From positions 4,410-68,409 of the forward strand of contig JBLHJX010000002.1 in assembly GCA_047619225.1 (NCBI GenBank): a stretch of 64,000 nt of DNA, in the 5' to 3' direction. Below, one piece after another: positions 43,465 to 56,083 of the stretch (its first letter is position 1; every line of letters begins with the position of its first letter). The translations under genes and the position numbers were made by a program. The stretch comes from Candidatus Latescibacterota bacterium (lineage in GTDB: Bacteria; Latescibacterota; UBA2968). The notes beneath the pieces were generated by a model, which saw nothing but the letters and a program-made list of their open reading frames with translations, was not told the origin of the DNA and did not search any database.

Positions 43465-44946
43465 TCATTCCAAATAATCCATTTCAGGCCGCAAATCCCA
43501 CCGTACCCGATCTTCCGGCACCGTCTGCCGCGCCCAAGCAGAAAGCACCTGATTGTCTTCGCGTTTGGCTGCCATCTTCCTCACAATCTCCTCGGGTTGC
43601 CATTCTGCCAACACCTCTTCCGTCAATGCTCGAACAACATCTGTACAAACCGGGTCATTCACCCGATCGTGCATCTCATCAGGATCTTCTTTCAAATTGA
43701 ACAACTGACTCGGTTGATCATGGTAATAATTCAACTTCCATTCATCACGCCGCACCATCCGTTGATAAACGCCCTCACTTGGAAACGGCCCACCTGCCCC
43801 AGCGGCATCCTGACAGAACTCCGAGAACGCCACATTCTCCCAATCTGAAGTCTCACCACACAACAAAGGCAAAAGCGAACGCCCCCGTGAATGGGGCAAT
43901 GGATCGCCCCCCAAAGCATCAATCATCGTCGTATTCAAATCCAATGACGAAATCACCTCATCAAATCGTTTCCCCTCAGGCAACACACCCGGCCAAGAAA
44001 CAATGGCTGGCACCTTTACCGAATGTTCATAAAACGTCTGTTTCCACCAAAGCCCATGTTCTCCCACCTGTTCTCCATGATCCGACATATACACAATCAG
44101 TGTATTCTCTGCCAAATCATTGTCACGCAACGCAGCCAAAATTTGCCCAATCATATGGTCCATCCGATCCACCAACGCCCAATACGCTGTCCGTGCCCGC
44201 AAAACTTCTACCTCCGTCACACTTTGAATACCACACTTCTCCCGCCACATTCTAATATGAGGATGCAAACCATCCGAAAATACCTCTGTAATTTTCGGCG
44301 CCAGCACCTTGCCAGCATATCGATCAAAATCCTCACGCCGCGCCACAAACGGCTGATGCGGCAACATAAACCCAACCGACAAACAAAACGGTTCCCCATC
44401 CTGCCCCGCCCGCTTATTCACCCCCACCCGATTCAAAAAATCCACCGTCGCAACCGTCACATCCTCATCATGCACCTGATACGCACTCTGCCCAATACCC
44501 GACTTACGCAAACTCACACGCCCAGGCCCTGCCGTGCCCGTCAACATCCCATGATTGGCACCCCTGCCCCCCAAATAATTCGGCCCATGATCCCCCACCA
44601 AACGCTCCGTATACCCATGCAACTGATCGGGCCCCACCGAATGCATCCGCCCAATCAACACCGGACGATATCCCCCAGCCCCCATCGCATGCGCAAACGT
44701 CGGAATACTCGAATCCAACCCATGCCCATTTGTCCAAACCCCATTCTCAAAAGGAAATCGTCCACTCAACATCGACATCCGCGACGGCACACAAATCGGC
44801 GAAGGACAATACACATTATCCAACACCACACCCTTTTTCGCCAACCCATCCAAATGCGGCGTCTGCACCACCTTATCCCCATAACATCCCGTAACATATG
44901 GATTGTGTTGATCAGAATGTATATACAAAAGATTTGGTTTTTCCAT
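43465..44946 (-). CDS. Formylglycine-type sulfatase
   Basis: 493 aa. MEKPNLLYIHSDQHNP...YCPSPICVPSRMSMLSGR contains CVPSR. Confidence 0.9.
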   Translation of the reverse strand: MEKPNLLYIHSDQHNPYVTGCYGDKVVQTPHLDGLAKKGVVLDNVYCPSPICVPSRMSMLSGRFPFENGVWTNGHGLDSSIPTFAHAMGAGGYRPVLIGRMHSVGPDQLHGYTERLVGDHGPNYLGGRGANHGMLTGTAGPGRVSLRKSGIGQSAYQVHDEDVTVATVDFLNRVGVNKRAGQDGEPFCLSVGFMLPHQPFVARREDFDRYAGKVLAPKITEVFSDGLHPHIRMWREKCGIQSVTEVEVLRARTAYWALVDRMDHMIGQILAALRDNDLAENTLIVYMSDHGEQVGEHGLWWKQTFYEHSVKVPAIVSWPGVLPEGKRFDEVISSLDLNTTMIDALGGDPLPHSRGRSLLPLLCGETSDWENVAFSEFCQDAAGAGGPFPSEGVYQRMVRRDEWKLNYYHDQPSQLFNLKEDPDEMHDRVNDPVCTDVVRALTEEVLAEWQPEEIVRKMAAKREDNQVLSAWARQTVPEDRVRWDLRPEMDYLE

Positions 44947-44972
44947 CTATCATCTCTCCCAGATTTTGATTA

Positions 44973-45267
44973 CCAAAAAACTCTGATTTCACCCATGGTG
45001 GTGTGGGCCGTTGCATAGTTGGTTTAATTACTCCAAAAACTTCAACTTCACCCACGGCGGTGTGGGCCGTTGTGTGGTTGGTGTGGAAAGGAAGGGTGTG
45101 TGCGGAAGGGGCATATGGAATATGCCGGAAGGGTGGGAACCACGCGGGCTGGTGAGGGTGGCCTCCGCTCATAAAAACACTGAAGTACATTAAAGCCCCA
45201 CGCAGTGGCACCCTTCTTTTGCCTACTTTTCTTGGGGTGTACCAAGAAAAGTAGGACGCCGTAGGCA
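44973..45267 (+). repeat. Structured intergenic repeat, copy 3, with duplicated left module
   Basis: The left module CCAAAAA.CT....TTCACCC..GG.GGTGTGGGCCGTTG occurs twice (44973-45018 and 45031-45076). The rest is collinear with copy 2. The terminal hairpin is 45222-45255 plus ACGCCGTAGGCA. Confidence 0.8.
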
Positions 45268-45271
45268 GACG

Positions 45272-46462
45272 TTACCGTGCCCCCGGATACGCACCCGCTG
45301 GATGTTTCAACAATTCCTCCTCAATCAAATCCGACCCCAACCCCGGCCGCGTTGGCACCTGCAAAAACCCATCCCGAATCTCAAACGGATGCGTCATAAT
45401 TTCATCCCGCCAAGGCGCGTCATCTACATCCATCTCACAAATAAAAAAATTAGGCACCGTCGCACACACATTGGCAGAAACCAACGTATTGATCGGACTG
45501 TGACAATTATGCGGCGCAATCAACGTATCATATGCATGCGCAAAATCACAGATCTTCTTCCCCATCGTAATCCCATTCCAAGCCAAATCAGGCATAATCA
45601 CATCTTGCGCATGCAACTGCAAAAACGGTTTATACCCCAACACCCCAAACAAACTTTCCCCTGTACAAATCGGCGTTGTCGTCGACTCGCGTATCGTACG
45701 CAATGCCTCCGCATCAAACGTCTCCGTCTCCAACCACATCAAATCATACGGCTCCAACACCCGCGCCAGTTTAATCGCGCCACCCAACTTAAACGTAAAC
45801 GCCACATCCAACGCAATCCCCACATCTGGCCCCAACACCTCCCGAAACGCACCCACTATCGCCTCCGCATTGCGCAACACAGGCCCAGGTGCGTCCCCCG
45901 CGTGCGTCGAAAACGCATTGCGCACCCACTTTGTATCGGGCCGATCTTGCAGCGGAAACAAATTCGTCTTAATCGCTGTAAATCCACGTTCCAACACTTC
46001 CTCAGCCAACCGTTTCACATCATCCGTCGTCTCCACGCATGGCACCCCAATCCGCTCGGCCCGCTCAGGTTGCGCCCGAATAGATCCACAATGTGACCAA
46101 TACAACCGCATCTCATCGCGCATCTTCCCCCCCAACAGTTGCCACACCGGCGCATTCAACACCTTCCCCCGAATATCCCACAATGCCGAATCAATGCCTG
46201 ACATCGCTTTATAAGCAATGCCTCCCATATGCCGCACAGATGCCGCGTTGAGCTCCCACCAAATCGCCTCAGCCTGCATCGGGTCTTTGCCAATAATCCA
46301 TTCCGAATACCGTTCCACCGTTGCCACAACCGGCCCAGGCGATCCCCAATCCGTACAATCTCCCCATCCAATCACACCCGGATCACTCGTCTCAATCTTT
46401 ACAAACGTCCACGGGCGAAACCCACCATCTACAATAAACGTCTTCACTTTTGTAATTTTCAT
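45272..46462 (-). CDS. Enolase-superfamily (mandelate racemase/muconate lactonizing) sugar-acid dehydratase-like enzyme
   Basis: 396 aa. MKITKVKTFIVDGGFRPWTFVKIETSDPGVIGWGDCT resembles the start of the galactonate/mannonate dehydratase subgroup. Confidence 0.85.
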   Translation of the reverse strand: MKITKVKTFIVDGGFRPWTFVKIETSDPGVIGWGDCTDWGSPGPVVATVERYSEWIIGKDPMQAEAIWWELNAASVRHMGGIAYKAMSGIDSALWDIRGKVLNAPVWQLLGGKMRDEMRLYWSHCGSIRAQPERAERIGVPCVETTDDVKRLAEEVLERGFTAIKTNLFPLQDRPDTKWVRNAFSTHAGDAPGPVLRNAEAIVGAFREVLGPDVGIALDVAFTFKLGGAIKLARVLEPYDLMWLETETFDAEALRTIRESTTTPICTGESLFGVLGYKPFLQLHAQDVIMPDLAWNGITMGKKICDFAHAYDTLIAPHNCHSPINTLVSANVCATVPNFFICEMDVDDAPWRDEIMTHPFEIRDGFLQVPTRPGLGSDLIEEELLKHPAGAYPGAR

Positions 46463-46469
46463 AACATCC

Positions 46470-46928
46470 TTAATCCTCTTCAGGATTTAAAATAAAAAGC
46501 CCCTCTTGCCTTGCGATCTGACAAAAGGGGATATCGGCACATACAAAATAATCAAGTGGTGCTTGTCTATGAAATTCAAGTGCAACAGCTAACTGGAGTG
46601 CATCTAACGTTCGCAAATTTTCAGTGCGTGCATATGTCATCAACAGACGGATCGCACGTTGTTGATGTATGAGATTAAGAGGAAGAATACGGAGCTTACG
46701 ATTTCGAATATCTGAAAGGAATCGACTACGTAAAATACGAAAGTCATTTGGAATCAATATCCCCATACGAACAAGTCGAGCAAGAGCAGAATGCCATTCA
46801 ATCAGTCCAAGACGTGAAATAAAGATGCGATTGCTTGGTTCGTTAATGAGGTCTATAACTTTCTTCCGGCCTATTTCCTCATGATAATATTTAATCAGGG
46901 CACTGGTATCAAAAAAACAGTTTGCCAT
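46470..46928 (-). CDS. vapC: PIN-domain toxin (VapC-like)
   Basis: 152 aa with an N-terminal FFDTSALIKY acidic residue and LRTLDALQLAVA. Confidence 0.8.
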   Translation of the reverse strand: MANCFFDTSALIKYYHEEIGRKKVIDLINEPSNRIFISRLGLIEWHSALARLVRMGILIPNDFRILRSRFLSDIRNRKLRILPLNLIHQQRAIRLLMTYARTENLRTLDALQLAVALEFHRQAPLDYFVCADIPFCQIARQEGLFILNPEED

Positions 46929-47236
46929 TACCGCTCATCTCTTTCTTCACTTATCATTTTTGCCATAGATCCTTTGATTTTAGAAGTGATTTTGAGAACT
47001 TCTTCCATAGTTATAGAAGAGTCCGCTTCGGCCATCATTTCCTGCCCAAGGTCAGACGCCCAAAACTCTTTATCTTCTAAATCATGAGATGCATCTTCGA
47101 TTTGATAAGAAGTTTGCAACTGTGCCTCTATTCTTCGCCTCACTTCCATCAAATCTTCCGACGAAAGTTTACAAACCGTCTCAATCAATCTTTCCAAAGG
47201 CAATTGAATACTCACATCTTTATCCGTAATGGCCAT
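46928..47236 (-). CDS. Putative cognate antitoxin
   Basis: 102 aa and acidic. Its stop overlaps the vapC ATG (TAATG). The family is not recognised. Confidence 0.55.
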   Translation of the reverse strand: MAITDKDVSIQLPLERLIETVCKLSSEDLMEVRRRIEAQLQTSYQIEDASHDLEDKEFWASDLGQEMMAEADSSITMEEVLKITSKIKGSMAKMISEERDER

Positions 47237-47294
47237 CTTTCCCCTCTTTAATCAGAGATTCTATATTGTCAACACACCTCTCGAAATATATCCC

Positions 47295-47339
47295 AATCAC
47301 AGATAGAATTCAAGCCATCAATCACATGATCAAATCACA
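47295..47339 (-). promoter_or_regulatory. Three direct AATCACA repeats upstream of the antitoxin gene
   Basis: Copies lie at 47295-47301, 47320-47326 and 47333-47339 (TGTGATT on the coding strand). A TTGACA hexamer lies downstream of them, close to ATG 47236. Confidence 0.3.
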
Positions 47340-47348
47340 GCTTACTTT

Positions 47349-47987
47349 TCACAGTTTACCCACCTCATCCAATCGCAAAACTTTTGCCCCCACCGCTATC
47401 AAATGGGCGTTGGCATCACTCTCCAAAGTATACACAATTTTTCCTGCTGCAATAACATCTTGCGCCAAAACCGCCGTTTTGCCATTAGGATTGGCATGAA
47501 CAACAAGCACGTCTTGGGCAAGTGTAGCCACAAACCGATTGCGCAGTTCAGACAAAGCCGCCGTCACGCGCATGTGCCGATCTTCAAATGGAGACAATAC
47601 CAACATCTGTCCACTCTGAATCTTCGACCGCCAAGTCACAGGCACCCGCATCCGATTTAAACTCCGTGCCGGACAAACCACAATGGGTTGATCACCCCGC
47701 ATCAACACATCAAACGCTTCTTTTTCCATGGGTGTATGAAATCCACTGATCACAGTAGCACCCGAATCGCGCAAATGTTGTGCAACATCATATGTTTTAA
47801 GCACCAAATCACCAGGGCAACGAACCGAGCAAAACATGCCCAACAAACTGGGCTGTAAAATATCGAAATTGCCTAAGAATGAAAGACGGTGTGGGGATTC
47901 AAAAAGAGAGGACGTTTTAAGCGCAGGCGGGTAGCGAGAATCGTCGGTCAGAATATGGTGAATAGAAACATTCATAGAGATACCCAT
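47349..47987 (-). CDS. Stand-alone DprA/Smf-like Rossmann (SLOG-type) domain protein
   Basis: Track ORF extends to TTG 48002; ATG 47987 is an alternative. The core is GMFCSVRCPG..ATVISGFHTPMEKEAFDVLMRG..IVVCPARSL..LVLSPFE..RNRFVATLAQDVLVVHANPNGKT. Confidence 0.6.
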   Translation of the reverse strand: MGISMNVSIHHILTDDSRYPPALKTSSLFESPHRLSFLGNFDILQPSLLGMFCSVRCPGDLVLKTYDVAQHLRDSGATVISGFHTPMEKEAFDVLMRGDQPIVVCPARSLNRMRVPVTWRSKIQSGQMLVLSPFEDRHMRVTAALSELRNRFVATLAQDVLVVHANPNGKTAVLAQDVIAAGKIVYTLESDANAHLIAVGAKVLRLDEVGKL

Positions 47988-47998
47988 TAACAATAATG

Positions 47999-48415
47999 TC
48001 AAATAGCAGCCATTGTCGGTTTAATGTCCACAAACGTCAACGGTATCTGCTCTGTGGGAGAAACTTGAAAATGTGACACCTTTAAAAACTGGCTCACAGG
48101 CATTGACATAATAATCTGAAAAACCATATCCTGCAAATCTTCTGGCAGGTTATCCAACTTGTTCAGAGGAAAACTACGCGGCCCATATTCTGTTCGCTCG
48201 GTCAAAATAGAAAAATCAAGCAACAGCAAACTGATCGCGCGTTTGCTTCTTCTGTTAAACCGCAAAACAATGTGATCCGTAATTTCAACACCCGTGGCCG
48301 ATTCATTCTCACCAAAAAAGATCTCCAGATGATCAGCCTCTTGATCATAAACGAGATGAACCAAAGTGCCGTCAGAGGTTGTGGTTTCTGTCTTAACAAG
48401 ATTGAGTTCGCTCAT
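47999..48415 (-). CDS. DUF2283-like small protein
   Basis: 138 aa. LVYDQEADHLEIFFGENE...EITDHIVLRFN fits my recollection of the DUF2283 signature. It lies immediately upstream of the DprA-like gene. Confidence 0.5.
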   Translation of the reverse strand: MSELNLVKTETTTSDGTLVHLVYDQEADHLEIFFGENESATGVEITDHIVLRFNRRSKRAISLLLLDFSILTERTEYGPRSFPLNKLDNLPEDLQDMVFQIIMSMPVSQFLKVSHFQVSPTEQIPLTFVDIKPTMAAI

Positions 48416-48536
48416 TGGCTCATCAACATTTATGACATATTCCTCGAAAAGATTCTATGGACAATCATGTTCTATAAAAATAGCCAAACAAAATCAAAAT
48501 GCCAATCACAAACACGCTTCCCGATTTGGGAAAGAG

Positions 48537-50869
48537 CTATTCATCCACATCAATCCCCATCCGATATTTGATGTCGTAATTGATAATAAAATCCAATTCC
48601 TCATCCGTAAACCCATAATGCTGCGCCAATACACGATCAATCTCGTCTATGATGGGTTTGCTAACACGCGGTTGAAATGTTTGGATGTTTTTTATACCAA
48701 ATTTTCCATAATTATTTGTAAGAATTTTTGAATTTTTCTCAAAATCTTTCATAAGCTTTCTAGCCAAAGAAGATATTTCACTAACAGAGGAAAGCTTGTT
48801 TAAAGAAGATCTGAAGTGATCAAGTTCTCGCCGATTCACATTACGCACATCTGAAAAAGCATTAAAAAACCAAAAGAAAAGTGTCGAATTGAGTAAAGCA
48901 ATAAGAGCATAAACTTCAGAGGAATTATTAAGACGGATTTCTTTTAGTTCCGTTGGAGCTAACGCATTATCCTTTTCATCGGTGATTTTTGGTATAAAAT
49001 CGAAAAATTGAACGAAATATCTGAGTTTTCGAGTATAGTAAACAATATGATTAGCATTTTTCCGATAAAATTGATACAAAATCGGATGCTTCTGTATCTT
49101 CTCCAGTATTGACATTTCTAATGGTGTAGAGATTTTTGCAATGGCATCCTTTACCAAATTCGATTCTGCCTTTTGATCAACATATTTTGTTGTTCCAAGA
49201 AGATGGTCTCGTTCTTCAGAGAGCCAGCGGTGATACTTTGAAATAAAAAACCCTTCTCCACCAGCAAAATCTGAAAGCCAAATAGTTAGACGTTTTTCAA
49301 CACCATTAAATAGTTTTGATGGACGCTCTGCAAAATTCGTTATCCAAGACTTGATATTTTTATTTATAAATAATTTTCGGAGATCAGAGAATCCATCAGC
49401 ACTAACAATTGAAATTGGAATAATCATTCCGAATTTTCCATACTCTTTCAAAAGTATAAAGGAACGTTCTATAATAAACGCATATAGATCCCCACAGGAC
49501 TCTGTCCTATAATTTTTTATATTATATGACTTTTGAACCTTTCTGTATTCCACATAAGGCGGATTCCCAATAATTATGTCAAACCCACCACTTTCCATAA
49601 TTGCATAAAAATCCACAAACCAGTGAAAGGGCTGATGTGTGGCAAGCCACTCTGCATATTTTTTATGCTGTTTATCTGGGTCAATAATATTATACTCTGT
49701 AGCAAGGTAACGATTGAGTTCATTTTCAAGGTCAGCAAGGCGGTCGCGCAATTCTTTCTTATGTCCAGCAGTGATGTTGCCCCCATGCTGAGTTTGTTGT
49801 TCCCGAAATTGTTTAAACGCCTTTGCCGCATTCTCCGTACGTTCCTGAATTTTGGGCAATTCGAGTTGCTTCACCAAATCAGTTTTAAGTGTCCGTTTCA
49901 CATCCTCAAATGTCGCAAACCCAACCAACGTATTGCCCGCACGAATGTTAAAATCAATATCTGGCAACGGTTCAAGATCTTCTACATTTTCAATTTGAGA
50001 CACGAGTTTCAAAAACAGCCGCAGCTTGCAAATCTCCGTCGCTTCGGCCATAATATCTACACCAAAGAGATTCTTCAAAATAATGGTTTTGTAAATGAAA
50101 TAGGCACGGCTGGCATGATCCTCTACCTGTTGCAATGTCTCCCGAAAATCACTGAACTTTTTCGGCGAGTGTTTTTCACCCGAACGATCCAAATCATCTA
50201 CAAAATGCTGCATCCGAATCAGGCACATATCATACAGCGGTTCAAGAATATTCAAAGCCGCAAACAGAAACGCGCCCGAACCACACGTGGGGTCGAGCAC
50301 AGTCACATTAGAAATGGCCTTATAAAAGGCACGCAACACGTCAGCATCTTCACACCGGTCAATTGCATCACGCGCAAATTGAATAATATCCAAATTCAGC
50401 GTGATAAAATCATTGATCGTTGTCACATCACCATTTTGCAATTTTTAGCGCACATCCAAACATCGCTGCCGTCGCGCCACATGCTCGCGCCAGGTTTCGG
50501 TGGGCAAAGCATACACAGCATCCGCAGCTTTGTTCCAGCCATCGCGCTTCGACACATCGCCCACACCCACCTCAATGTCATCGGGCAATGCAACCACCTG
50601 CCCCTCATCGCCAATCACCCCTTTTAAAACCGCATCATAAATATAACGATCAGGGTCATCTTTAAGAGGTTGCCACAAAGGGGCATCTGGCGAACATGCA
50701 TAAACCACCATGCCACGCTTCTCCGCTATCGCAGTCAGTTCGTAATCATAGTCATCAATCTCTATAACCTGATTGGCTGGCGAAAGTCCCAACCCAATTC
50801 CTGTGTGAACAACCCGCTAAAATCACACTTCCCCAAACGCTCCAAAACGGCTTTTTTGTCAATATTCAT
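48537..50869 (-). pseudogene. Gamma-class N6-adenine DNA methyltransferase (Eco57I/type IIG-like) in three pieces
   Basis: Piece 1 runs from ATG 50869 to the stop at 50762 (MNIDKKAVLERLGKCDFSGLFTQELGWD...). Piece 2 is 50445..50792 in the -1/+2 frame. An in-frame TAA lies at 50445-50447. Piece 3 is 48537..50441 (634 aa) and carries VLDPTCGSGAFL (motif I) and IIIGNPPYV (motif IV). Confidence 0.7.
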
Positions 50870-50973
50870 GAACGACCATCCAAAGGGTTGATATTCAAAC
50901 ACATTTGTGCTATATTTGGTTTAGCGACCAGCATGGGCCGGTGTCAACCGACTCTGGACAATGTCCCTGGCCG

Positions 50974-51741
50974 CTACTTTTTTTGCTGTTCTGCAATCCA
51001 ACCCAACACATCTTGCAAATCTTCTCCACTGCGGTAAATAAGCCGGTCAATGGCAATAATACCACTTTCATCAAACGATTTGACCGGTAATCCTGCCTTG
51101 CCCTCTTCCTTCTTGCGCGCACTTAACGCACACATATCGCACAATTGCAGCATGAGGCTTTTTGTCGATTCGATAAAAAACCCCTTTTCTACAATCCGAT
51201 CCAACCGCAATTTACCCTCAATACCGCGTAAAATTTTGATCGATTTTTCAATATCGTGACCAATTTCCTTGTTTTCATCTGAAATAATCACGCCTCGTTG
51301 TGTGCCAGGCAACGTATGCAAATATTCGTTGGCCACATGGGCAACCAGTGGAAAAGCAACAATATGCGGATTAATCTGCACCCCCAAACCAAAGGTATTT
51401 TGCTGCCAACGCTGATACCGTTTTTTAACAATCGCACGATATATCAGCTTTAAATCATGACGGTGGGCAATATCAAAACAGGCGTCGCGAAAAACGATAC
51501 GATCACCCACCGACATATCTTTAAACGATCCTCTGCCCGAGCGCAAGTCTGTGCCATGAATTTCAAAATTGTCAGGACGTGGATCAGGAAAATAAGTGTC
51601 AATCAAAGTTTGCAAGTCACGCTCAGCATCTTGCCAAACCTCCTCAGGCACCACAAGCCCCGCCAGCACAAAAACAGGCTGTTGGGTGTCATCCAAGTTA
51701 TTGCCTGTATTGCCAGACTCATCAAAATAGATCAAATGCAC
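50974..51741 (-). CDS. DUF3800-family protein
   Basis: 255 aa with the MHLIYFDESGNTG start and the LMLQLCDMCA block, as I recall for DUF3800. Confidence 0.65.
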   Translation of the reverse strand: MHLIYFDESGNTGNNLDDTQQPVFVLAGLVVPEEVWQDAERDLQTLIDTYFPDPRPDNFEIHGTDLRSGRGSFKDMSVGDRIVFRDACFDIAHRHDLKLIYRAIVKKRYQRWQQNTFGLGVQINPHIVAFPLVAHVANEYLHTLPGTQRGVIISDENKEIGHDIEKSIKILRGIEGKLRLDRIVEKGFFIESTKSLMLQLCDMCALSARKKEEGKAGLPVKSFDESGIIAIDRLIYRSGEDLQDVLGWIAEQQKK

Positions 51742-51811
51742 AGCAATTTGTTCCTCAAATCAGTAGCTTGTGAATTAAAAAAATAAATGAAATCCATCAC
51801 GAGAATAAAAC

Positions 51812-54800
51812 CTATACCTCCTGCTTCAAACCCATCGAACAAATAATACGAGATTCCTGCCTTTGAACATCGTCGTGAATCACACACAAACGATTATCTT
51901 CCCGCAATGCAATCACAAGTTGAGCCAAGTTATCGTCTGAAATGCCGCTGCGAAGCTGGCGGTTCAACGTATCAGTTGCTACATTGGTCATCGGATATCG
52001 ATACATTTCTTCAATCGTACGGTGCAAAAGTGCCGTATCAAAAAGCGTGTTCTTAATACGATCTGCATAGCTTTTAAGCCGTTCATACACCCGAAAACGC
52101 GCACCCGAAGGACGCCCCAATGTGCCACCAACCGATTTGGATTCACTGGCAATATGCTTCAACCCCGCCAAAACCATTTGATGATGATTATCATGATGAA
52201 GTTGAGGAAGTGTCTCAGGACCACACTCAGCGGCACGCAAAATAGAAAATTGCGACTCTGTAATGCTGTTGCCCCCTTTATCTACCCACGCCAATGCATC
52301 ATTACCCTCGGCAGTTCTGACATAAACAAGTGCGCCTTCGGGATATGCTGTGTTCGGATTATGGGGCTTAGTGGCATAAACCACAGATGGCAATTCTGGC
52401 ACACGCTTGGCAAGGCTGGGATCGCGATCAGTGGCATTTTTCCAAATCTGATACGCATACGATGCCAAATCGATTTCGGTGTCATCATCCCCATCTAAAA
52501 CACCTGCCTTCTCCGTAAACAAATCACGCATGATATCTTCGTCATCATCATCTTCAAAAAACGATTCATCGGTACCAACGACCTCGGCATTTTCATGGAG
52601 CCGTTGCCGCACCCGAGCACGCAAGTTGATAATACGTTCAACACCCTCAGCAGGTAAAAAAGAATAGCACAAAATACGCTCAGACAACTGTCCAATACGA
52701 TCCACACGCCCAGCGCGTTGAATCAAACGAATAATGGCCCAAGGCAAATCGAAGTTGACAATAATCGCTGCGTCTTGAAGGTTTTGACCTTCACTCAGCA
52801 CATCGGTCGCAATCAAAACACGCAATGTTTGCTCAGGTGCAATCTGATCCTGTTTGTCATTGCTCACAGGGCTAAAACGATGTGCCAGATGTGTTGGATC
52901 AGATGAACCACCGGTCACACCCGAGAGCTGATCGGCTCCACGTTTCTTAAGCTGCTGTTCTAAATAGCTAACCGTATCTGCAAACTGTGTAAAAACAATA
53001 ACTTTTTCATCAGGATGTTGCTTAATCAGCAAATCTTCTAAAAGATTCAATTTCACATCTTTTTCCGGCAGCCAATCTCCACAAGTTTTCAACATTTGAA
53101 TAAGCTTGCGTGCATCTTTTAAAAGGTGCTTTCTCAAATTCTCATTAAATAAATCAGACCGAATCCAACGGAAACGCCGCCGAAATTTTGTGGCATATTG
53201 GGCATAAACATCCTCAGCACGCTTTAGAAAATCAGACTCTTTCCTCAGCGTTGTTCCTTGCACCTCAACAACTTCAGTAACATCATCTTCAAACAAGTCA
53301 CCAGGTGCATTGACATCATCAACATCGACATCTGTCAAACGCGCATCCAAGATACCAGGGTCTTGTGTACCAATGGGAATAGGTGCTTTGCTTTCAATAG
53401 CGTGCAAATAGATAAAATTGCGCAAAATATGGCGTTCAACAGATAAGGTAAAGGCATGACCACTGCTTTCGAGCCGTTTGAACAAATTGGTACGACAAAA
53501 TCCCATCAACCCTTTACCTGCGCGTGATAAATCTTGAAGAATTGTTTTTTCTGCGCCATTTGGTGATTGATCAGGCTTTGAAATTGTGTAATTGCCCAAT
53601 CCATAACGTGGCAAAAGCAAGCTGTTGATAGACCGAACAACAGGCTCTGAATACAAACGCGCATATTGATCTTCACCATTGCTATCTTCAATAGTAAATT
53701 GCACAGTCTTAGGTAAACGAATGGGAAAATAGGATTGGGTGCCATCTTCCAATTTTAAATACTCACGCCCCTCATCATCCAATTTTGCATAATTGCCTTT
53801 AATAAAACTGCGCGTGCGCCGAACCAGATACAACCGCATCAACTCCCGCCAGTCGTCGGCGTATTCACTTTTCTCAAATGCAGCCAAAGAACGGGGTGGG
53901 CTTTGATAGCGACGCATAAACTGTGTTTCGCCCATATCGCGCATCAACCGCTCTGGGCGTATGCCAATATCTTTCTCCTCAGGAATAAACAGACGAAGCT
54001 GATTTGCAAGATCGAGGTACGTTTTGTTATACGGCGTGGCCGAAAGCATAATCACTTTGCTTTCGCTTTGACGAATATATTCCTGAATAGCACGATAACG
54101 TTTGCCGTCTCGGTTTCGCAGATTATGACTTTCGTCTATCAACACCAAACGAAAACGTGCAGGCACATCAGGTAATAGTTGAATAACTTGGCTAAACGGT
54201 ACAATCATTGCGTGCAAACCATATTCACGCGTATAACTTTCCCACATACCCACAAGATTTTTGGGGCACAAAATCAATGTACTCAGATAATGATCATCCT
54301 GAAAAATTCGTGCCAATGCAGTGGCCATGAGCGTTTTGCCCAAACCAACCACATCACCAATCAGCACACCACCCCGTTTATTCAAGTGATGGGCAGCAAT
54401 TTTAACAGCCGCAACTTGGAAATCAAAAAGCTTGTTGCCAAAATCTCTGGGAATCCGAAACTCTGTTAATCCTTCCCGTGCCTCTTTAGAAAGGTGATAA
54501 GCCATTTTAAGGTAAATTTCATAGGGTGAAAGGGTCTGCTCACCCGCCCAACTTTCTTGGATAATCTGCTCTAACTCATCTGAAATATCAATACACCATC
54601 GATCTTCCCACCGCTCATCAAACCATTTGGATAGTTTGCGACAAGCATCTTGATCTAAAACATCAACATTCAATTCGCCCTGATAGGACAGCCCAGAAAG
54701 CGTCAAATTGCTGCTGCCAAGATAACCAACAATTGGACTCACAGGGTCTTCGCGAAACATGAGGTACAGTTTGGCGTGCAATGGATGTTTCAAAAACAGC

Positions 54801-55192
54801 TTAACAACAACCTTCTTATCGCGTATTTGTGCTGCAAGTTTGCGCAAACCTTTTTCATCTTCTTGCGTCGGAACACCTATTGTTAATTGGTCTCTAAATT
54901 CTTCTGCCAATCGTTTTTTGAGCCTGAGAGCCGTTTGATTATCTATGCCGGGATTGCCATTTGAAATACTTTGAATCTGTCGCAACTCCTCCTGTGGCAT
55001 TCGTTGCATACCAATAAGGAGACGGCAACACTGATCTTTGCCACCAGACCATTGATCTACAGAGTTGGCAATTTGTTTCCAACCACGCAGGTTAAAATAT
55101 CCAACACAAAAATCACCACGATGTGAAACTTCAATCGTACTCTTCAATGCAGTGATCAAATGTTGGTTAATGTTGTCAAATATTTCAGGCAT
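51812..55192 (-). CDS. PLD/HKD-nuclease domain fused to SNF2-family helicase, with an uncharacterised C-terminal region
   Basis: 1126 aa. The HKD motif is HPLHAKLYLMF...GSSNLT. SNF2 motifs are DVVGLGKT, LVLIDESHNLRN and MLSATPYNK. The C-lobe has DVLSEGQNLQD and RAGRVDRIGQ. The last ~270 aa match no motif I know. Confidence 0.85.
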   Translation of the reverse strand: MPEIFDNINQHLITALKSTIEVSHRGDFCVGYFNLRGWKQIANSVDQWSGGKDQCCRLLIGMQRMPQEELRQIQSISNGNPGIDNQTALRLKKRLAEEFRDQLTIGVPTQEDEKGLRKLAAQIRDKKVVVKLFLKHPLHAKLYLMFREDPVSPIVGYLGSSNLTLSGLSYQGELNVDVLDQDACRKLSKWFDERWEDRWCIDISDELEQIIQESWAGEQTLSPYEIYLKMAYHLSKEAREGLTEFRIPRDFGNKLFDFQVAAVKIAAHHLNKRGGVLIGDVVGLGKTLMATALARIFQDDHYLSTLILCPKNLVGMWESYTREYGLHAMIVPFSQVIQLLPDVPARFRLVLIDESHNLRNRDGKRYRAIQEYIRQSESKVIMLSATPYNKTYLDLANQLRLFIPEEKDIGIRPERLMRDMGETQFMRRYQSPPRSLAAFEKSEYADDWRELMRLYLVRRTRSFIKGNYAKLDDEGREYLKLEDGTQSYFPIRLPKTVQFTIEDSNGEDQYARLYSEPVVRSINSLLLPRYGLGNYTISKPDQSPNGAEKTILQDLSRAGKGLMGFCRTNLFKRLESSGHAFTLSVERHILRNFIYLHAIESKAPIPIGTQDPGILDARLTDVDVDDVNAPGDLFEDDVTEVVEVQGTTLRKESDFLKRAEDVYAQYATKFRRRFRWIRSDLFNENLRKHLLKDARKLIQMLKTCGDWLPEKDVKLNLLEDLLIKQHPDEKVIVFTQFADTVSYLEQQLKKRGADQLSGVTGGSSDPTHLAHRFSPVSNDKQDQIAPEQTLRVLIATDVLSEGQNLQDAAIIVNFDLPWAIIRLIQRAGRVDRIGQLSERILCYSFLPAEGVERIINLRARVRQRLHENAEVVGTDESFFEDDDDEDIMRDLFTEKAGVLDGDDDTEIDLASYAYQIWKNATDRDPSLAKRVPELPSVVYATKPHNPNTAYPEGALVYVRTAEGNDALAWVDKGGNSITESQFSILRAAECGPETLPQLHHDNHHQMVLAGLKHIASESKSVGGTLGRPSGARFRVYERLKSYADRIKNTLFDTALLHRTIEEMYRYPMTNVATDTLNRQLRSGISDDNLAQLVIALREDNRLCVIHDDVQRQESRIICSMGLKQEV

Positions 55193-55219
55193 TAGAATTT
55201 ACCGAAGTGTTTTTTGAAC

Positions 55220-55248
55220 AATATAGGCCGCCAAACAAAGCTTGTCAA
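55220..55248 (-). promoter_or_regulatory. Sigma-70-type promoter for the helicase gene
   Basis: The minus strand reads TTGACA (55243-55248), a 17-nt spacer, then TATATT (55220-55225). It lies about 28 nt upstream of ATG 55192. Confidence 0.5.
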
Positions 55249-55253
55249 TCACA

Positions 55254-55288
55254 CAAAAAATGAGGGCAGATCATTTCTCTGCCCTCAT
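55254..55288 (-). terminator. Intrinsic terminator insulating the island from the upstream gene
   Basis: ATGAGGGCAGA (55260-55270) pairs with TCTGCCCTCAT (55278-55288) in an 11-bp perfect stem. The minus strand continues TTTTTTGTGTG. Confidence 0.7.
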
Positions 55289-55302
55289 TCTTCTTTCTTC
55301 TC

Positions 55303-55323
55303 ACGTCTTACGTCTTACGTCTC
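55303..55323. repeat. Heptanucleotide tandem repeat (ACGTCTT)x2 + ACGTCTC
   Basis: Units start at 55303, 55310 and 55317. The array lies between terminator 55254..55288 and the stop codon of 55334..56083. Confidence 0.85.
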
Positions 55324-55333
55324 ACCGCCTTTA

Positions 55334-56083
55334 TTATCCCGCCAACGCCCGCATCTTTTCCACACAATTTTTCAACGCAGGCACCGGGTTTTCAACATCG
55401 GCTTCATACTCAATCACAGCCATACCATCAAACCCACTCTTTTCAAGCCCATCCACAAAAGCCTTCAAATCCAACGTACCTTCACCCACCACCGTATCGT
55501 GCCATTGACCATTGGGATCAAATACAAAATCTTTGTAATGCACACCATAAATCTGCCCAGCAAAATCTTCTGTCCACTTCACGGGGTTGCCTTGGCGTGG
55601 ACCAATTTGCAATGCCCAAGCTGTATCAATGCACACACCAATCTCAGGGCCACCCAAACCAATCAAATGCTTCAACACACTGGGCTGCCCACCAAAGCTA
55701 TAACCACCATGGCAGTGAATACCCACTCGAATGCCATACTCTCGGCTCCAACCACGCACTTGTGCAATGGCCTTGGCATAAGATTCAAGCTGAAAATGAC
55801 AGGAAATATGTTTGGCACCTGCAATGGCCGCACACTCAAAAAAATCTTTGTCCGATGGATTGCCCGTAAACGTCTGCACACCGATCGAAATCACTGACAC
55901 ACCCGCATCTTCATACGTCTTCACCACATTTTTCCAACCCTCAGGGTCATTAAAATCGGCATGAACAGCACACACCTCAATTTTATCCAACCCAATGTCT
56001 TTCACCTTCTGTGCCACGTCGGCATTGTCTTTAAAATGACGAAAACAATAACTCTGAACCCCATAATCCAATGCTGCACTCAT
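55334..56083 (-). CDS. Sugar phosphate isomerase/epimerase (xylose isomerase-like TIM barrel)
   Basis: Track ORF extends to 56116; I use ATG 56083 with AAGGAG upstream. Translation begins MSAALDYGVQSYCFRHF and ends ...GMAVIEYE. Confidence 0.8.
   Translation of the reverse strand: MSAALDYGVQSYCFRHFKDNADVAQKVKDIGLDKIEVCAVHADFNDPEGWKNVVKTYEDAGVSVISIGVQTFTGNPSDKDFFECAAIAGAKHISCHFQLESYAKAIAQVRGWSREYGIRVGIHCHGGYSFGGQPSVLKHLIGLGGPEIGVCIDTAWALQIGPRQGNPVKWTEDFAGQIYGVHYKDFVFDPNGQWHDTVVGEGTLDLKAFVDGLEKSGFDGMAVIEYEADVENPVPALKNCVEKMRALAG

Follow-up and report, generated by a model that had tools for sequence, protein, structure and literature searches.

A probable decayed copy of a widespread HKD-SNF2 helicase-nuclease and PglX-like methylase module in a Latescibacterota contig

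What kind of system is formed by a helicase-nuclease gene, a DUF3800 gene and an adenine methylase gene that stand next to each other in a Candidatus Latescibacterota bacterium, and does it belong to any defence type already described? The three genes lie in a 64,000-nucleotide stretch of contig JBLHJX010000002.1 (positions 4,410 to 68,409 of the forward strand), here called the window, and coordinates of the locus are counted from its first letter. A sequence-only reading had described them as a restriction-like defence module fitting no canonical type, either a minimal form of DISARM (defence island system associated with restriction-modification) or a new system. Using open reading frame (ORF) translations, Pfam, PADLOC and NCBIfam profile models, family alignments, and structure prediction with fold search, we consider it probable that the locus is a decayed copy of a widespread, unnamed, minimal restriction-modification-like module related to DISARM and bacteriophage exclusion (BREX), in which the methylase is dead and the DUF3800 gene is a passenger. 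The ORFs and Pfam matches bear out the three genes as described, all on one strand: a 1126-residue HKD-SNF2 protein, a DUF3800 protein and a gamma-class adenine methylase.

The helicase gene joins an HKD (phospholipase D, PLD) nuclease and an SNF2 motor in one polypeptide, as had been read from its motifs. Pfam places PLDc_2/RE_NgoFVII at residues 112-195, followed by SNF2-rel_dom, ResIII and Helicase_C, and residues H139, K141, G159-S-(S)-N162, Walker A G283-T287, D353-E-S355 and motif VI Q825-Q835 are invariant across family alignments. Each polypeptide carries a single HKD motif (H139, K141, GSSN159-162), with DESH at 353-356. The tail of about 270 residues, earlier described as lacking a recognisable match, is a real domain given its high conservation across the family; the conserved C-terminal domain spans residues ~908-1126. 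In both sequence and fold the helicase is most similar to RapA, in agreement with the BrxHII/RapA-like architecture described for BREX-related helicases (PMC12839542). Identification of the tail by structure was attempted and abandoned: the AlphaFold2 model of the whole helicase was mediocre (pLDDT, the predicted local distance difference test score, 63; predicted template-modelling score 0.39), and its fold search returned just RapA as the longest-covering match, with a template-modelling score of ~0.14-0.18. The closest relative of the window helicase is that of related locus L011, and vice versa (70% identity). At otherwise invariant sites the window helicase has 11 private substitutions, the most of 38 sequences (median 2), none of them in catalytic motifs; relaxed selection was considered as a cause and set aside, as the query may simply be the most divergent sequence of the set.

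The second core gene, the methylase, is not intact. Its longest surviving part, a 634-residue ORF (50441..48537, minus strand), has Pfam Eco57I, MmeI_Mtase and N6_Mtase domains and keeps DPTCGSGAFL and NPPY, so that its assignment as a gamma-class N6-adenine enzyme stands; the expectation that a small repair would restore it does not, since we found a frameshift, a deletion of ~316 codons and a stop codon. The true start is the ATG at 50869 (MNIDKKAVLERLGKCDFSGLFTQELGWD). A frameshift follows near 50790-50765, after the ELGWD motif; the frame resumes for homologue residues ~43-69, residues ~70-385 are deleted (junction ~50685/50678), and an in-frame TAA lies at 50447..50445. The PADLOC model PDLC03628 (1100 positions) matches the 634-residue ORF at positions 451-1099 (E 2e-192) and a preceding 115-residue ORF at positions 374-447. 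The deleted segment holds many family-invariant positions, and the 634-residue ORF, which begins at a TTG corresponding to an internal Leu in relatives, retains motif I, NPPY and the recognition region. Read against its full-length relatives, the gene appears to be a multiply disrupted pseudogene.

Full-length relatives indicate what this enzyme would have been. The window fragment is 53-55% identical to the methylases of loci L005 and L011. A model of the L011 protein (P0275; pLDDT 77) had its best fold matches in BREX PglX/BrxX (8Q56, 8C45, 9EWZ), each over ~1150 aligned columns, followed by CamA and M.TaqI, which cover the catalytic and recognition part. The C-terminal recognition region, proposed from sequence alone, indeed lies on the same polypeptide, the PglX/BrxX fold matches covering the full-length relative. 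We also considered a bifunctional Type IIG enzyme and rejected it: Pfam found no nuclease domain in full-length relatives (just DUF7814, MmeI_Mtase, Eco57I and N6_Mtase), no nuclease-bearing Type IIG or Type ISP enzyme was among the fold matches of P0275, and within the alpha/beta N-terminal ~120 residues the sole acidic residue of the 'AEKRG' stretch is unconserved. A conserved, N-terminally short isoform was suggested by the closest relative, P0242, whose 751 residues are about the length of the window gene without its stop. This idea was rejected because the DNA upstream of P0242, in locus L097, still encodes methylase residues ~240-348 and the helicase is truncated there; the short methylase of L097 thus appears to be a separate, independent deletion.

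Some further observations concern the methylase. G+C falls to 0.37 at 48000..50000, over the recognition region, against ~0.45-0.47 in the flanks, consistent with a swapped or foreign recognition module. In locus L099 (6731..10064) the methylase consists of abutting ORFs of 422 residues (DUF7814) and 687 residues (catalytic plus recognition), with a MazE/PIN pair in the gap. Locus L064 (10038..11309, plus strand) encodes a 423-residue protein in which a methylase-type N-terminus (…LFIEHLGWD…) is joined to sigma-70 regions 2 and 4; the N-terminal module of these methylases may be an autonomous unit.

The pair of helicase-nuclease and methylase is very common. The helicase-nuclease has >8000 cluster representatives at E ≤ 1e-10; the matches listed (120 of >8000) show 66-70% identity along their full length and represent various bacterial phyla as well as archaea, the lineages including NC10, Dehalococcoidales, Thermodesulfobacteriota, Poribacteria and a Methanosarcinales archaeon. 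The HKD domain alone gives 1028 clusters (50% identity) at the same threshold, and complete members have ~1060-1250 residues. For gene neighbourhoods, a single-protein contig scan gave 6 loci, and an alignment-based metagenome scan supplied the statistics; the census comprised 87 non-redundant related loci, 82 of them informative, with at least 1.5 kb of downstream sequence. In 81 of these 82, a ~1100-residue methylase of the same family lies directly 3' of the helicase. Conservation of the trio as a neighbourhood, which had been put forward as a check, therefore holds for the helicase-methylase pair and fails for DUF3800, found between the two in 3 of 81 loci. Nor is the pair unique to this genome: it belongs to a very large family on which databases and papers have already touched. 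PADLOC already has models named 'HKD+Snf2' and 'REase_MTase_IIG', the latter being the one matched by the window methylase at E 2e-192. A PADLOC system that uses the 'C3a139 HKD+Snf2' model could not be established; the 'C3a' labels look like accessory-gene clusters rather than systems, because the neighbouring 'C3a186' is annotated as a desaturase. Among loci with programmed inversions, Milman et al. (2023) list methylase genes of this kind beside a PLD(cd09178)+SNF gene (PMC9881135).

Unusual methylase arrangements occur in three loci of the census. L006 (13355..21295) has two methylase-like stretches in tandem, and in L068 (3776..7861) and L072 (9108..13193) the best methylase match is on the strand opposite the helicase. 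Programmed inversions have been reported for methylases of this type (PMC9881135) and may lie behind these arrangements.

The DUF3800 gene, which the sequence-only reading had counted as part of the module, appears instead to be a recurrent passenger. The window protein retains the N-terminal YFDESG motif, and the DUF3800 fold is predicted to be RNase H-like and linked to mobile elements and defence systems (PMC10910872, PMC13594972). We regard the gene as cargo because it is rare in the gap between helicase and methylase, because varied genes occupy that gap, and because its relatives stand alone. Only L011, L082 and L084 carry it there; the gap is at most 60 bp, with no gene, in 62 of 81 loci, and 12 have an insert of at least 400 bp. 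The other inserts include 23S-rRNA-IVP, a HigA-like HTH protein, a ParE-like toxin, a DUF5615/PIN-like pair, a zeta toxin with a small partner (L055; also L020), Uma2, Bro-N/PIN_8 (PADLOC PDC-S13) and a HEAT-repeat protein; in two further loci, L099 and the Synechocystis plasmid pSYSX, a VapBC-type pair takes this position. DUF3800 genes occur also 3' of the methylase, in a second gap, in L005 and L076. Relatives sharing 55-58% identity with the window protein are found by themselves in contexts of other kinds (Planctomycetes-type), with neither helicase nor methylase nearby, and L026, whose helicase is the nearest relative of that of L082 (87% identity), has no DUF3800 gene.

Downstream of the methylase, a short DprA-like gene is a candidate for a conserved third gene of the module, related by sequence to the DprA-like antitoxins PsyrA and ShosA. 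In PADLOC the window protein hits the PsyrA model at E 4e-21, with a weak match to ShosA. Homologues 42-48% identical lie on the same strand 3' of the methylase in 23 loci; where at least 6 kb of sequence follows the methylase, 13 of 17 loci have the gene, and where at least 3 kb follows, 18 of 31 do, always co-directional. Its distance from the methylase varies from 48 bp to 5.4 kb, and this second gap holds cargo of its own: GajA/GajB (Gabija), OLD, DarT with a macro domain, GmrSD, PLD nucleases, a reverse transcriptase, RES, a Dam methylase and a transposase. L010 (10001..11472) retains only the first 161 helicase residues and, within ~400 bp after them, the DprA-like gene, having lost the methylase and all else of the helicase. 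From the co-occurrence we infer a functional link between the DprA-like protein and the helicase-nuclease. ShosA is a DprA-like antitoxin that acts via single-stranded DNA and RecA binding, not toxin binding (PMC12961424). In the window, a DUF2283-like ORF shares 4 nt with the beginning of the DprA-like gene and probably belongs to the cargo of the second variable gap; a DUF2283 gene also occurs in the downstream region of L099.

The window copy is not alone in its erosion, which appears common in the family, judging from the other decayed copies L010, L097/L098 and L009. In L097 (4511..10256) and L098, a single deletion removes the helicase C-terminus and ~240 N-terminal methylase residues, and the DprA-like gene is kept. 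In L009 (10001..13392), on a Rivularia sp. chromosome, a change of frame near residue 814 divides the helicase match in two, with Uma2 in the gap; this helicase is probably a frameshifted pseudogene.

An experimentally studied relative is found on plasmid pSYSX of Synechocystis sp. PCC 6803, where the order is helicase (43696-47151; 52% identical to that of the window), VapBC pair and a methylase of 1100 residues at 47827-51129. The methylase is 49% identical to the window fragment and 56% to the L011 enzyme. We identified it by plasmid and protein length as slr6050, the old locus tag being absent from the record. The product of slr6050 is M.Ssp6803IV (REBASE), to which GA(m6A)AGGC has been assigned, and a knock-out never segregated, so that its authors judged the gene essential (PMC6105098). 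A linked restriction activity that kills unmodified cells would be the simplest explanation of this essentiality. Directly beyond the methylase and a DUF2513 gene, pSYSX (locus L100, 51619..54240) carries on the opposite strand a ubiquitin-like conjugation cluster that encodes a protein with multiubiquitin domain, an E2/UBC protein, a ThiF-family E1 and DUF6527, followed by an HTH/ImmA pair; the cluster is a further sign of a defence island.

Together, these proteins may form a restriction-modification-like pathway with a core of three conserved components. The first is the fusion of an HKD(PLD)-nuclease with an SNF2 translocase of RapA/BrxHII type, and the second, encoded directly downstream, is a ~1100-residue PglX/BrxX-like N6-adenine methylase with its own target-recognition region; the third, in most loci, is a short DprA-like protein encoded 0-5 kb farther downstream. 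The methylase would mark one strand of a short asymmetric motif in host DNA, and unmarked DNA would be attacked by the helicase-nuclease. Nuc and BfiI need two HKD motifs for one active site, and cleavage by the window family should need dimerisation because each polypeptide has one. The helicase-nuclease could thus translocate on double-stranded DNA and cut when two single-HKD domains form one active site, which would be simplest if two motors collided, in the manner of Type III and Type ISP enzymes. By analogy with ShosA and PsyrA, the DprA-like protein might serve as a safeguard or sensor that binds single-stranded DNA and RecA, and the two intergenic gaps may be places where unrelated toxin-antitoxin and defence genes land, passengers such as DUF3800 and the DUF2283-like ORF among them. 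A bolder proposal, which we advance only tentatively, is that HKD-SNF2, PglX-like methylase and, usually, the DprA-like protein constitute a distinct minimal restriction-like system, very widespread and so far unnamed, the smallest self-sufficient relative of BREX, DISARM, ARMADA and Hma, with a collision-dimerised HKD nuclease, a DprA-like safeguard linked to single-stranded DNA and RecA, and gaps dedicated to the docking of other defence and toxin-antitoxin genes. In the window itself, where the helicase, DUF3800 and DprA-like ORFs are intact, modification has probably been lost and the system is probably inactive and eroding; a recently inactivated system is its most likely state.

Several points weigh against this interpretation. 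The window helicase ORF is complete with all catalytic motifs kept, and an intact helicase-nuclease beside a dead methylase should be toxic if restriction needs no methylase, which the Synechocystis findings suggest. The puzzle could be resolved if the 634-residue fragment were still active to some degree, if the nuclease depended on the N-terminal methylase region deleted here, if the helicase had been silently inactivated, or if the two point lesions were sequencing artefacts. On the last of these, the contig is of metagenome type, and the frameshift and stop could be assembly or consensus errors, although the ~950-bp deletion is unlikely to be one. The collision-and-dimerisation model of cleavage is one that we only infer. 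The DprA-like gene may be accessory rather than core, being missing from some complete loci such as pSYSX, L001 and L033. As to the Synechocystis relative, the motif of M.Ssp6803IV was assigned by elimination and the neighbouring helicase was not discussed (PMC6105098), and slr6050 could be essential for other reasons. In the literature searched, we found no phage or plasmid defence test of this exact family.

The same observations can be arranged differently. Helicase-nuclease, DUF3800 and methylase might be an obligate defence unit of three genes, DUF3800 having a role of its own in it, such as that of an RNase H-like effector or sensor. The trio has the same order in L011/L012, L082 and L084, the close kinship of the window and L011 helicases implies that the arrangement has been kept for some time, and published work repeatedly connects DUF3800 with defence systems; yet the rarity of the gene in this gap, the many unrelated small genes that take its place, its presence in the second gap, its stand-alone relatives and its absence from L026 make such a unit very improbable. 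Rather less far-fetched, though still unlikely, is a reduced system that works: the 634-residue fragment, translated from the TTG at 50441 or by re-initiation, would still methylate and protect the genome. Such activity would explain why the helicase is intact although the Synechocystis methylase homologue is essential, the fragment does keep motif I, NPPY and the whole C-terminal region, matching the family model at positions 451-1099, and the L099 gene is naturally split at nearly the same point. L099, however, still encodes the N-terminal part that is deleted in the window, with its many invariant positions; the TTG, an internal Leu codon in relatives, has only a weak GGA upstream, the first ATG comes after motif I, and the independent deletion in L097 provides no conserved short isoform.

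If the methylase is dispensed with altogether, the helicase-nuclease and the DprA-like protein could have become a modification-independent toxin-antitoxin or abortive-infection pair, in which the DprA-like protein would hold back the helicase-nuclease or mend the damage that it does, as in PsyrTA. The match to the PsyrA antitoxin model, the way in which ShosA neutralises its toxin, the intactness of both genes in the window and the helicase remnant directly beside the DprA-like gene in L010 would all fit. In relatives, however, the methylase and up to 5 kb of cargo often separate the two genes, several complete loci have no DprA-like gene, direct interaction of the two proteins has left no sign, and retention of the methylase in 81 of 82 loci argues that a methylase-free mode is not the norm; we give this pairing little credence. 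The most improbable alternative is an epigenetic or DNA-transaction module with no part in defence, consisting of a regulatory methylase and a RapA-like remodeller. RapA, the closest solved structure, is a transcription-associated SNF2 protein, and the Synechocystis study treats methylases mainly as physiological regulators (PMC6105098). Against this stand the fused HKD nuclease with invariant catalytic residues, the spread over distant phyla and an archaeon at 66-70% identity and on plasmids, the embedded defence and toxin-antitoxin cargo, the frequent decay, and recognition regions that diverge while the helicase is conserved, features that are typical of mobile defence systems. A decayed restriction-modification-like copy with a passenger DUF3800 gene remains the interpretation that we prefer.

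Turning to the layout of the locus, five co-directional minus-strand genes lie between a strong hairpin (55259-55289) and a metabolic gene cluster (Table 1). The module had been delimited at 48537-55248; the three genes within those limits stand, and the limits themselves do not, as the DUF2283-like ORF and the DprA-like gene continue on the same strand. Both signals reported ahead of the helicase, a strong terminator and a TTGACA-17-TATATT promoter, are present. The hairpin is predicted to terminate the upstream TIM-barrel gene and insulate the module, and the promoter, a consensus match only, is the best promoter-like site within 47000-55600.

Table 1. Features of the helicase-nuclease and methylase locus, in the order of transcription
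Feature	Coordinates	Strand	Evidence or detail
Predicted terminator, G+C-rich hairpin then T-run	55254..55289	-	12-pair stem AATGAGGGCAGA...TCTGCCCTCATT, then TTTTTGTG on minus strand
Sigma-70-like promoter match, TTGACA-17-TATATT	55220..55248	-	11/12 matches, 28 bp upstream of helicase ATG
HKD(PLD)-nuclease::SNF2 translocase, RapA/BrxHII type, 1126 aa, intact	51812..55192	-	Pfam, family alignment, fold search
DUF3800 protein, 255 aa, intact	50974..51741	-	PF12686, E 1.3e-13
Apparent methylase pseudogene, PglX/BrxX-like gamma-class N6-adenine, C-terminal target-recognition region	48537..50869	-	Alignment with ~1100-aa relatives
Small ORF, 138 aa, weak DUF2283 match	47999..48415	-	E 1.3e-4, 22.5 bits vs cut-off 23
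DprA-like (DNA_processg_A) protein, 217 aa, intact	47349..48002	-	PF02481, E 2.6e-13

The upstream flank of the module is metabolic (TIM-barrel protein, GFO/IDH/MocA, glutamate synthase), and downstream lie a VapBC-like pair, an enolase-family dehydratase and a sulfatase. The VapBC-like pair (46470..47236, minus strand) immediately follows the DprA-like gene and consists of a PIN protein of 152 residues (PF01850, E 1.6e-10) after an overlapping 102-residue ORF; the island's edge is probably here. Shared synteny of the window with L011, suggested by the TIM-barrel gene upstream in each, was considered and dismissed, as the two proteins do not match at E ≤ 1e-4. GC skew is +0.22 in the first 4 kb of the window and -0.1 to -0.46 over the remaining 60 kb, negative in places regardless of gene strand; a replication-related switch near 4 kb could be the cause. 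No Rfam family or tRNA gene was found in the window.

The interest of the family lies in its economy. A PglX-type methylase paired with a BrxHII/RapA-type helicase is common to BREX type 3, DISARM class 1, ARMADA and Hma, and the question for all of them is how the pair discriminates and destroys foreign DNA. Those systems need four to eight genes; the window family packs the same pair plus a recognisable nuclease into two and is abundant in bacteria and archaea. Its tractable relative on Synechocystis 6803 pSYSX, with a known motif and an apparently essential methylase, makes the mechanism directly testable, and the DprA-like partner and the two cargo gaps raise the question of how core defence operons act as scaffolds for immune genes. 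The main use of the window copy, eroded as it is, is to point to the family and to illustrate the decay of such systems.

How, then, does the locus compare with known systems? No PADLOC match to BrxC, PglZ, DrmA, DrmB, HmaC, Hsd or Res was found at E ≤ 1e-6 in the other 40 window ORFs of at least 140 residues, which agrees with the earlier observation that hallmark genes of BREX, DISARM, Type I and Type III are missing, and the NCBIfam equivalog cut-offs were all missed by a wide margin for the window proteins. The description as a restriction-like helicase-nuclease/methylase module outside the canonical types is upheld on both counts, and on its gene content the locus appears to be neither BREX, DISARM, Hma/BR, ARMADA, Type I nor Type III. 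For a name or a functional test of the two-gene form, the searchable literature, which need not be exhaustive, gave just passing mentions.

A specific resemblance is to Hma/Type-2 BREX-related (BR) systems. The helicase architecture is common to both, with an N-terminal HKD domain, a Swi2/Snf2 core and RapA/BrxHII-like C-terminal domains, and the HKD-SNF2 fusion is shared specifically by the window family and Type-2 BR, whereas the helicase-methylase pair is common to BREX, DISARM, Hma/BR and ARMADA. The Hma/Type-2 BR helicase is likewise paired with an N6-adenine methylase, and a restriction-modification-like logic has been proposed for it (Rakesh & Krishnan 2026, PMC12839542). BR systems are, however, defined by a DUF499 AAA+ ATPase, and Type 2 has a DUF3780 gene in 98% of taxa (PMC12839542). 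DUF499 (HmaC) is absent from the window and from the called genes of L001-L004, L011, L097, L099 and pSYSX, and DUF3780 does not appear among the Pfam matches for genes of the window and the loci. For HmaA, PADLOC gives a weak match confined to the helicase C-lobe (E 3e-19 vs 6.5e-49 for 'HKD+Snf2').

Class 1 DISARM (DrmD, DrmMI, DrmA/DrmB, DrmC) likewise combines a PLD nuclease with an SNF2 helicase and a large adenine methylase of the gamma class, but the window is without DrmA (YprA helicase) and DrmB (DUF1998), neither of which was seen in the related loci inspected, and its PLD domain is fused to SNF2 instead of forming a separate DrmC. The DISARM_DrmD score is 133.7 bits against a cut-off of 610 (NCBIfam), and the PADLOC DrmMI match has E 1e-23 against 2e-192 for REase_MTase_IIG. 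Loss of the DISARM methylase can, as reportedly found by Ofir et al. in 2018, be toxic. ARMADA shares the gene pair of a helicase like BrxHII and a methylase like PglX, in the order seen in many archaeal and cyanobacterial loci; its nuclease is carried by an essential YprA-like helicase, whereas that of the window family (HKD) is on the SNF2 protein, and no YprA/DrmA-type gene was found in the window or the related loci inspected. ARMADA consists of ArmA (BrxHII-like helicase), ArmB (PglX-like methylase) and ArmC (YprA-nuclease) and has been experimentally validated as anti-phage (PMC12458937). In BREX (type 3 with BrxHII), the PglX/BrxX methylases are the best structural matches of the full-length relative, and the N-terminal 'ELGWD' region and the Eco57I-type catalytic domain are shared; the window lacks PglZ, BrxC, BrxA and BrxB and has a dedicated nuclease. 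PADLOC gave no PglZ or BrxC/PglY match in the window, and none was found in the related loci inspected. The window fragment scores 83 bits for BREX_1_MTaseX (NCBIfam) against a cut-off of 500, which points to a PglX-like fold but no equivalog. The effector of BREX itself is still debated.

Among restriction enzymes, Type III and Type ISP (EcoP15I; LlaGI/LlaBIII) are alike in outline, with asymmetric methylation of one strand, an SF2 ATPase-nuclease and a methylase that supplies recognition. The window motor is nevertheless of SNF2/RapA type, with the ResIII Pfam match covering only the DEAH-box stretch at residues 343-388, and its nuclease is HKD/PLD, not PD-(D/E)xK or Mrr. The Type III methylase Mod is of the beta class, whereas the ~1100-residue window methylase is gamma (motif I before NPPY, Eco57I-type domain), and Type ISP is one polypeptide where the window family has two. 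For Type I, no Hsd match occurs in the window, and the recognition region is part of the methylase polypeptide rather than a separate HsdS. Type IIG/IIS enzymes of the Eco57I/MmeI kind, suggested by PADLOC, by REBASE-derived models and by several source annotations, share Eco57I/MmeI_Mtase domains and an asymmetric 6-bp motif, but in the window family the nuclease is on the neighbouring helicase, and the IIG label rests on a PADLOC model name only. PsyrTA/ShosTA resembles the window in its third gene, of DprA fold and matching the PsyrA model; the window protein, of just ~210 residues, is the Rossmann-like core alone, and neither a phosphoribosyltransferase nor a RecQ-like toxin is present here, the partner toxin of PsyrA being a RecQ-like helicase. 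What fits is the unnamed pair of HKD-SNF2 and PglX-like methylase, of the slr6050 type: the window helicase has the features of this family and the methylase is orthologous but disrupted, and by sequence the window locus appears to be a decayed member of it.

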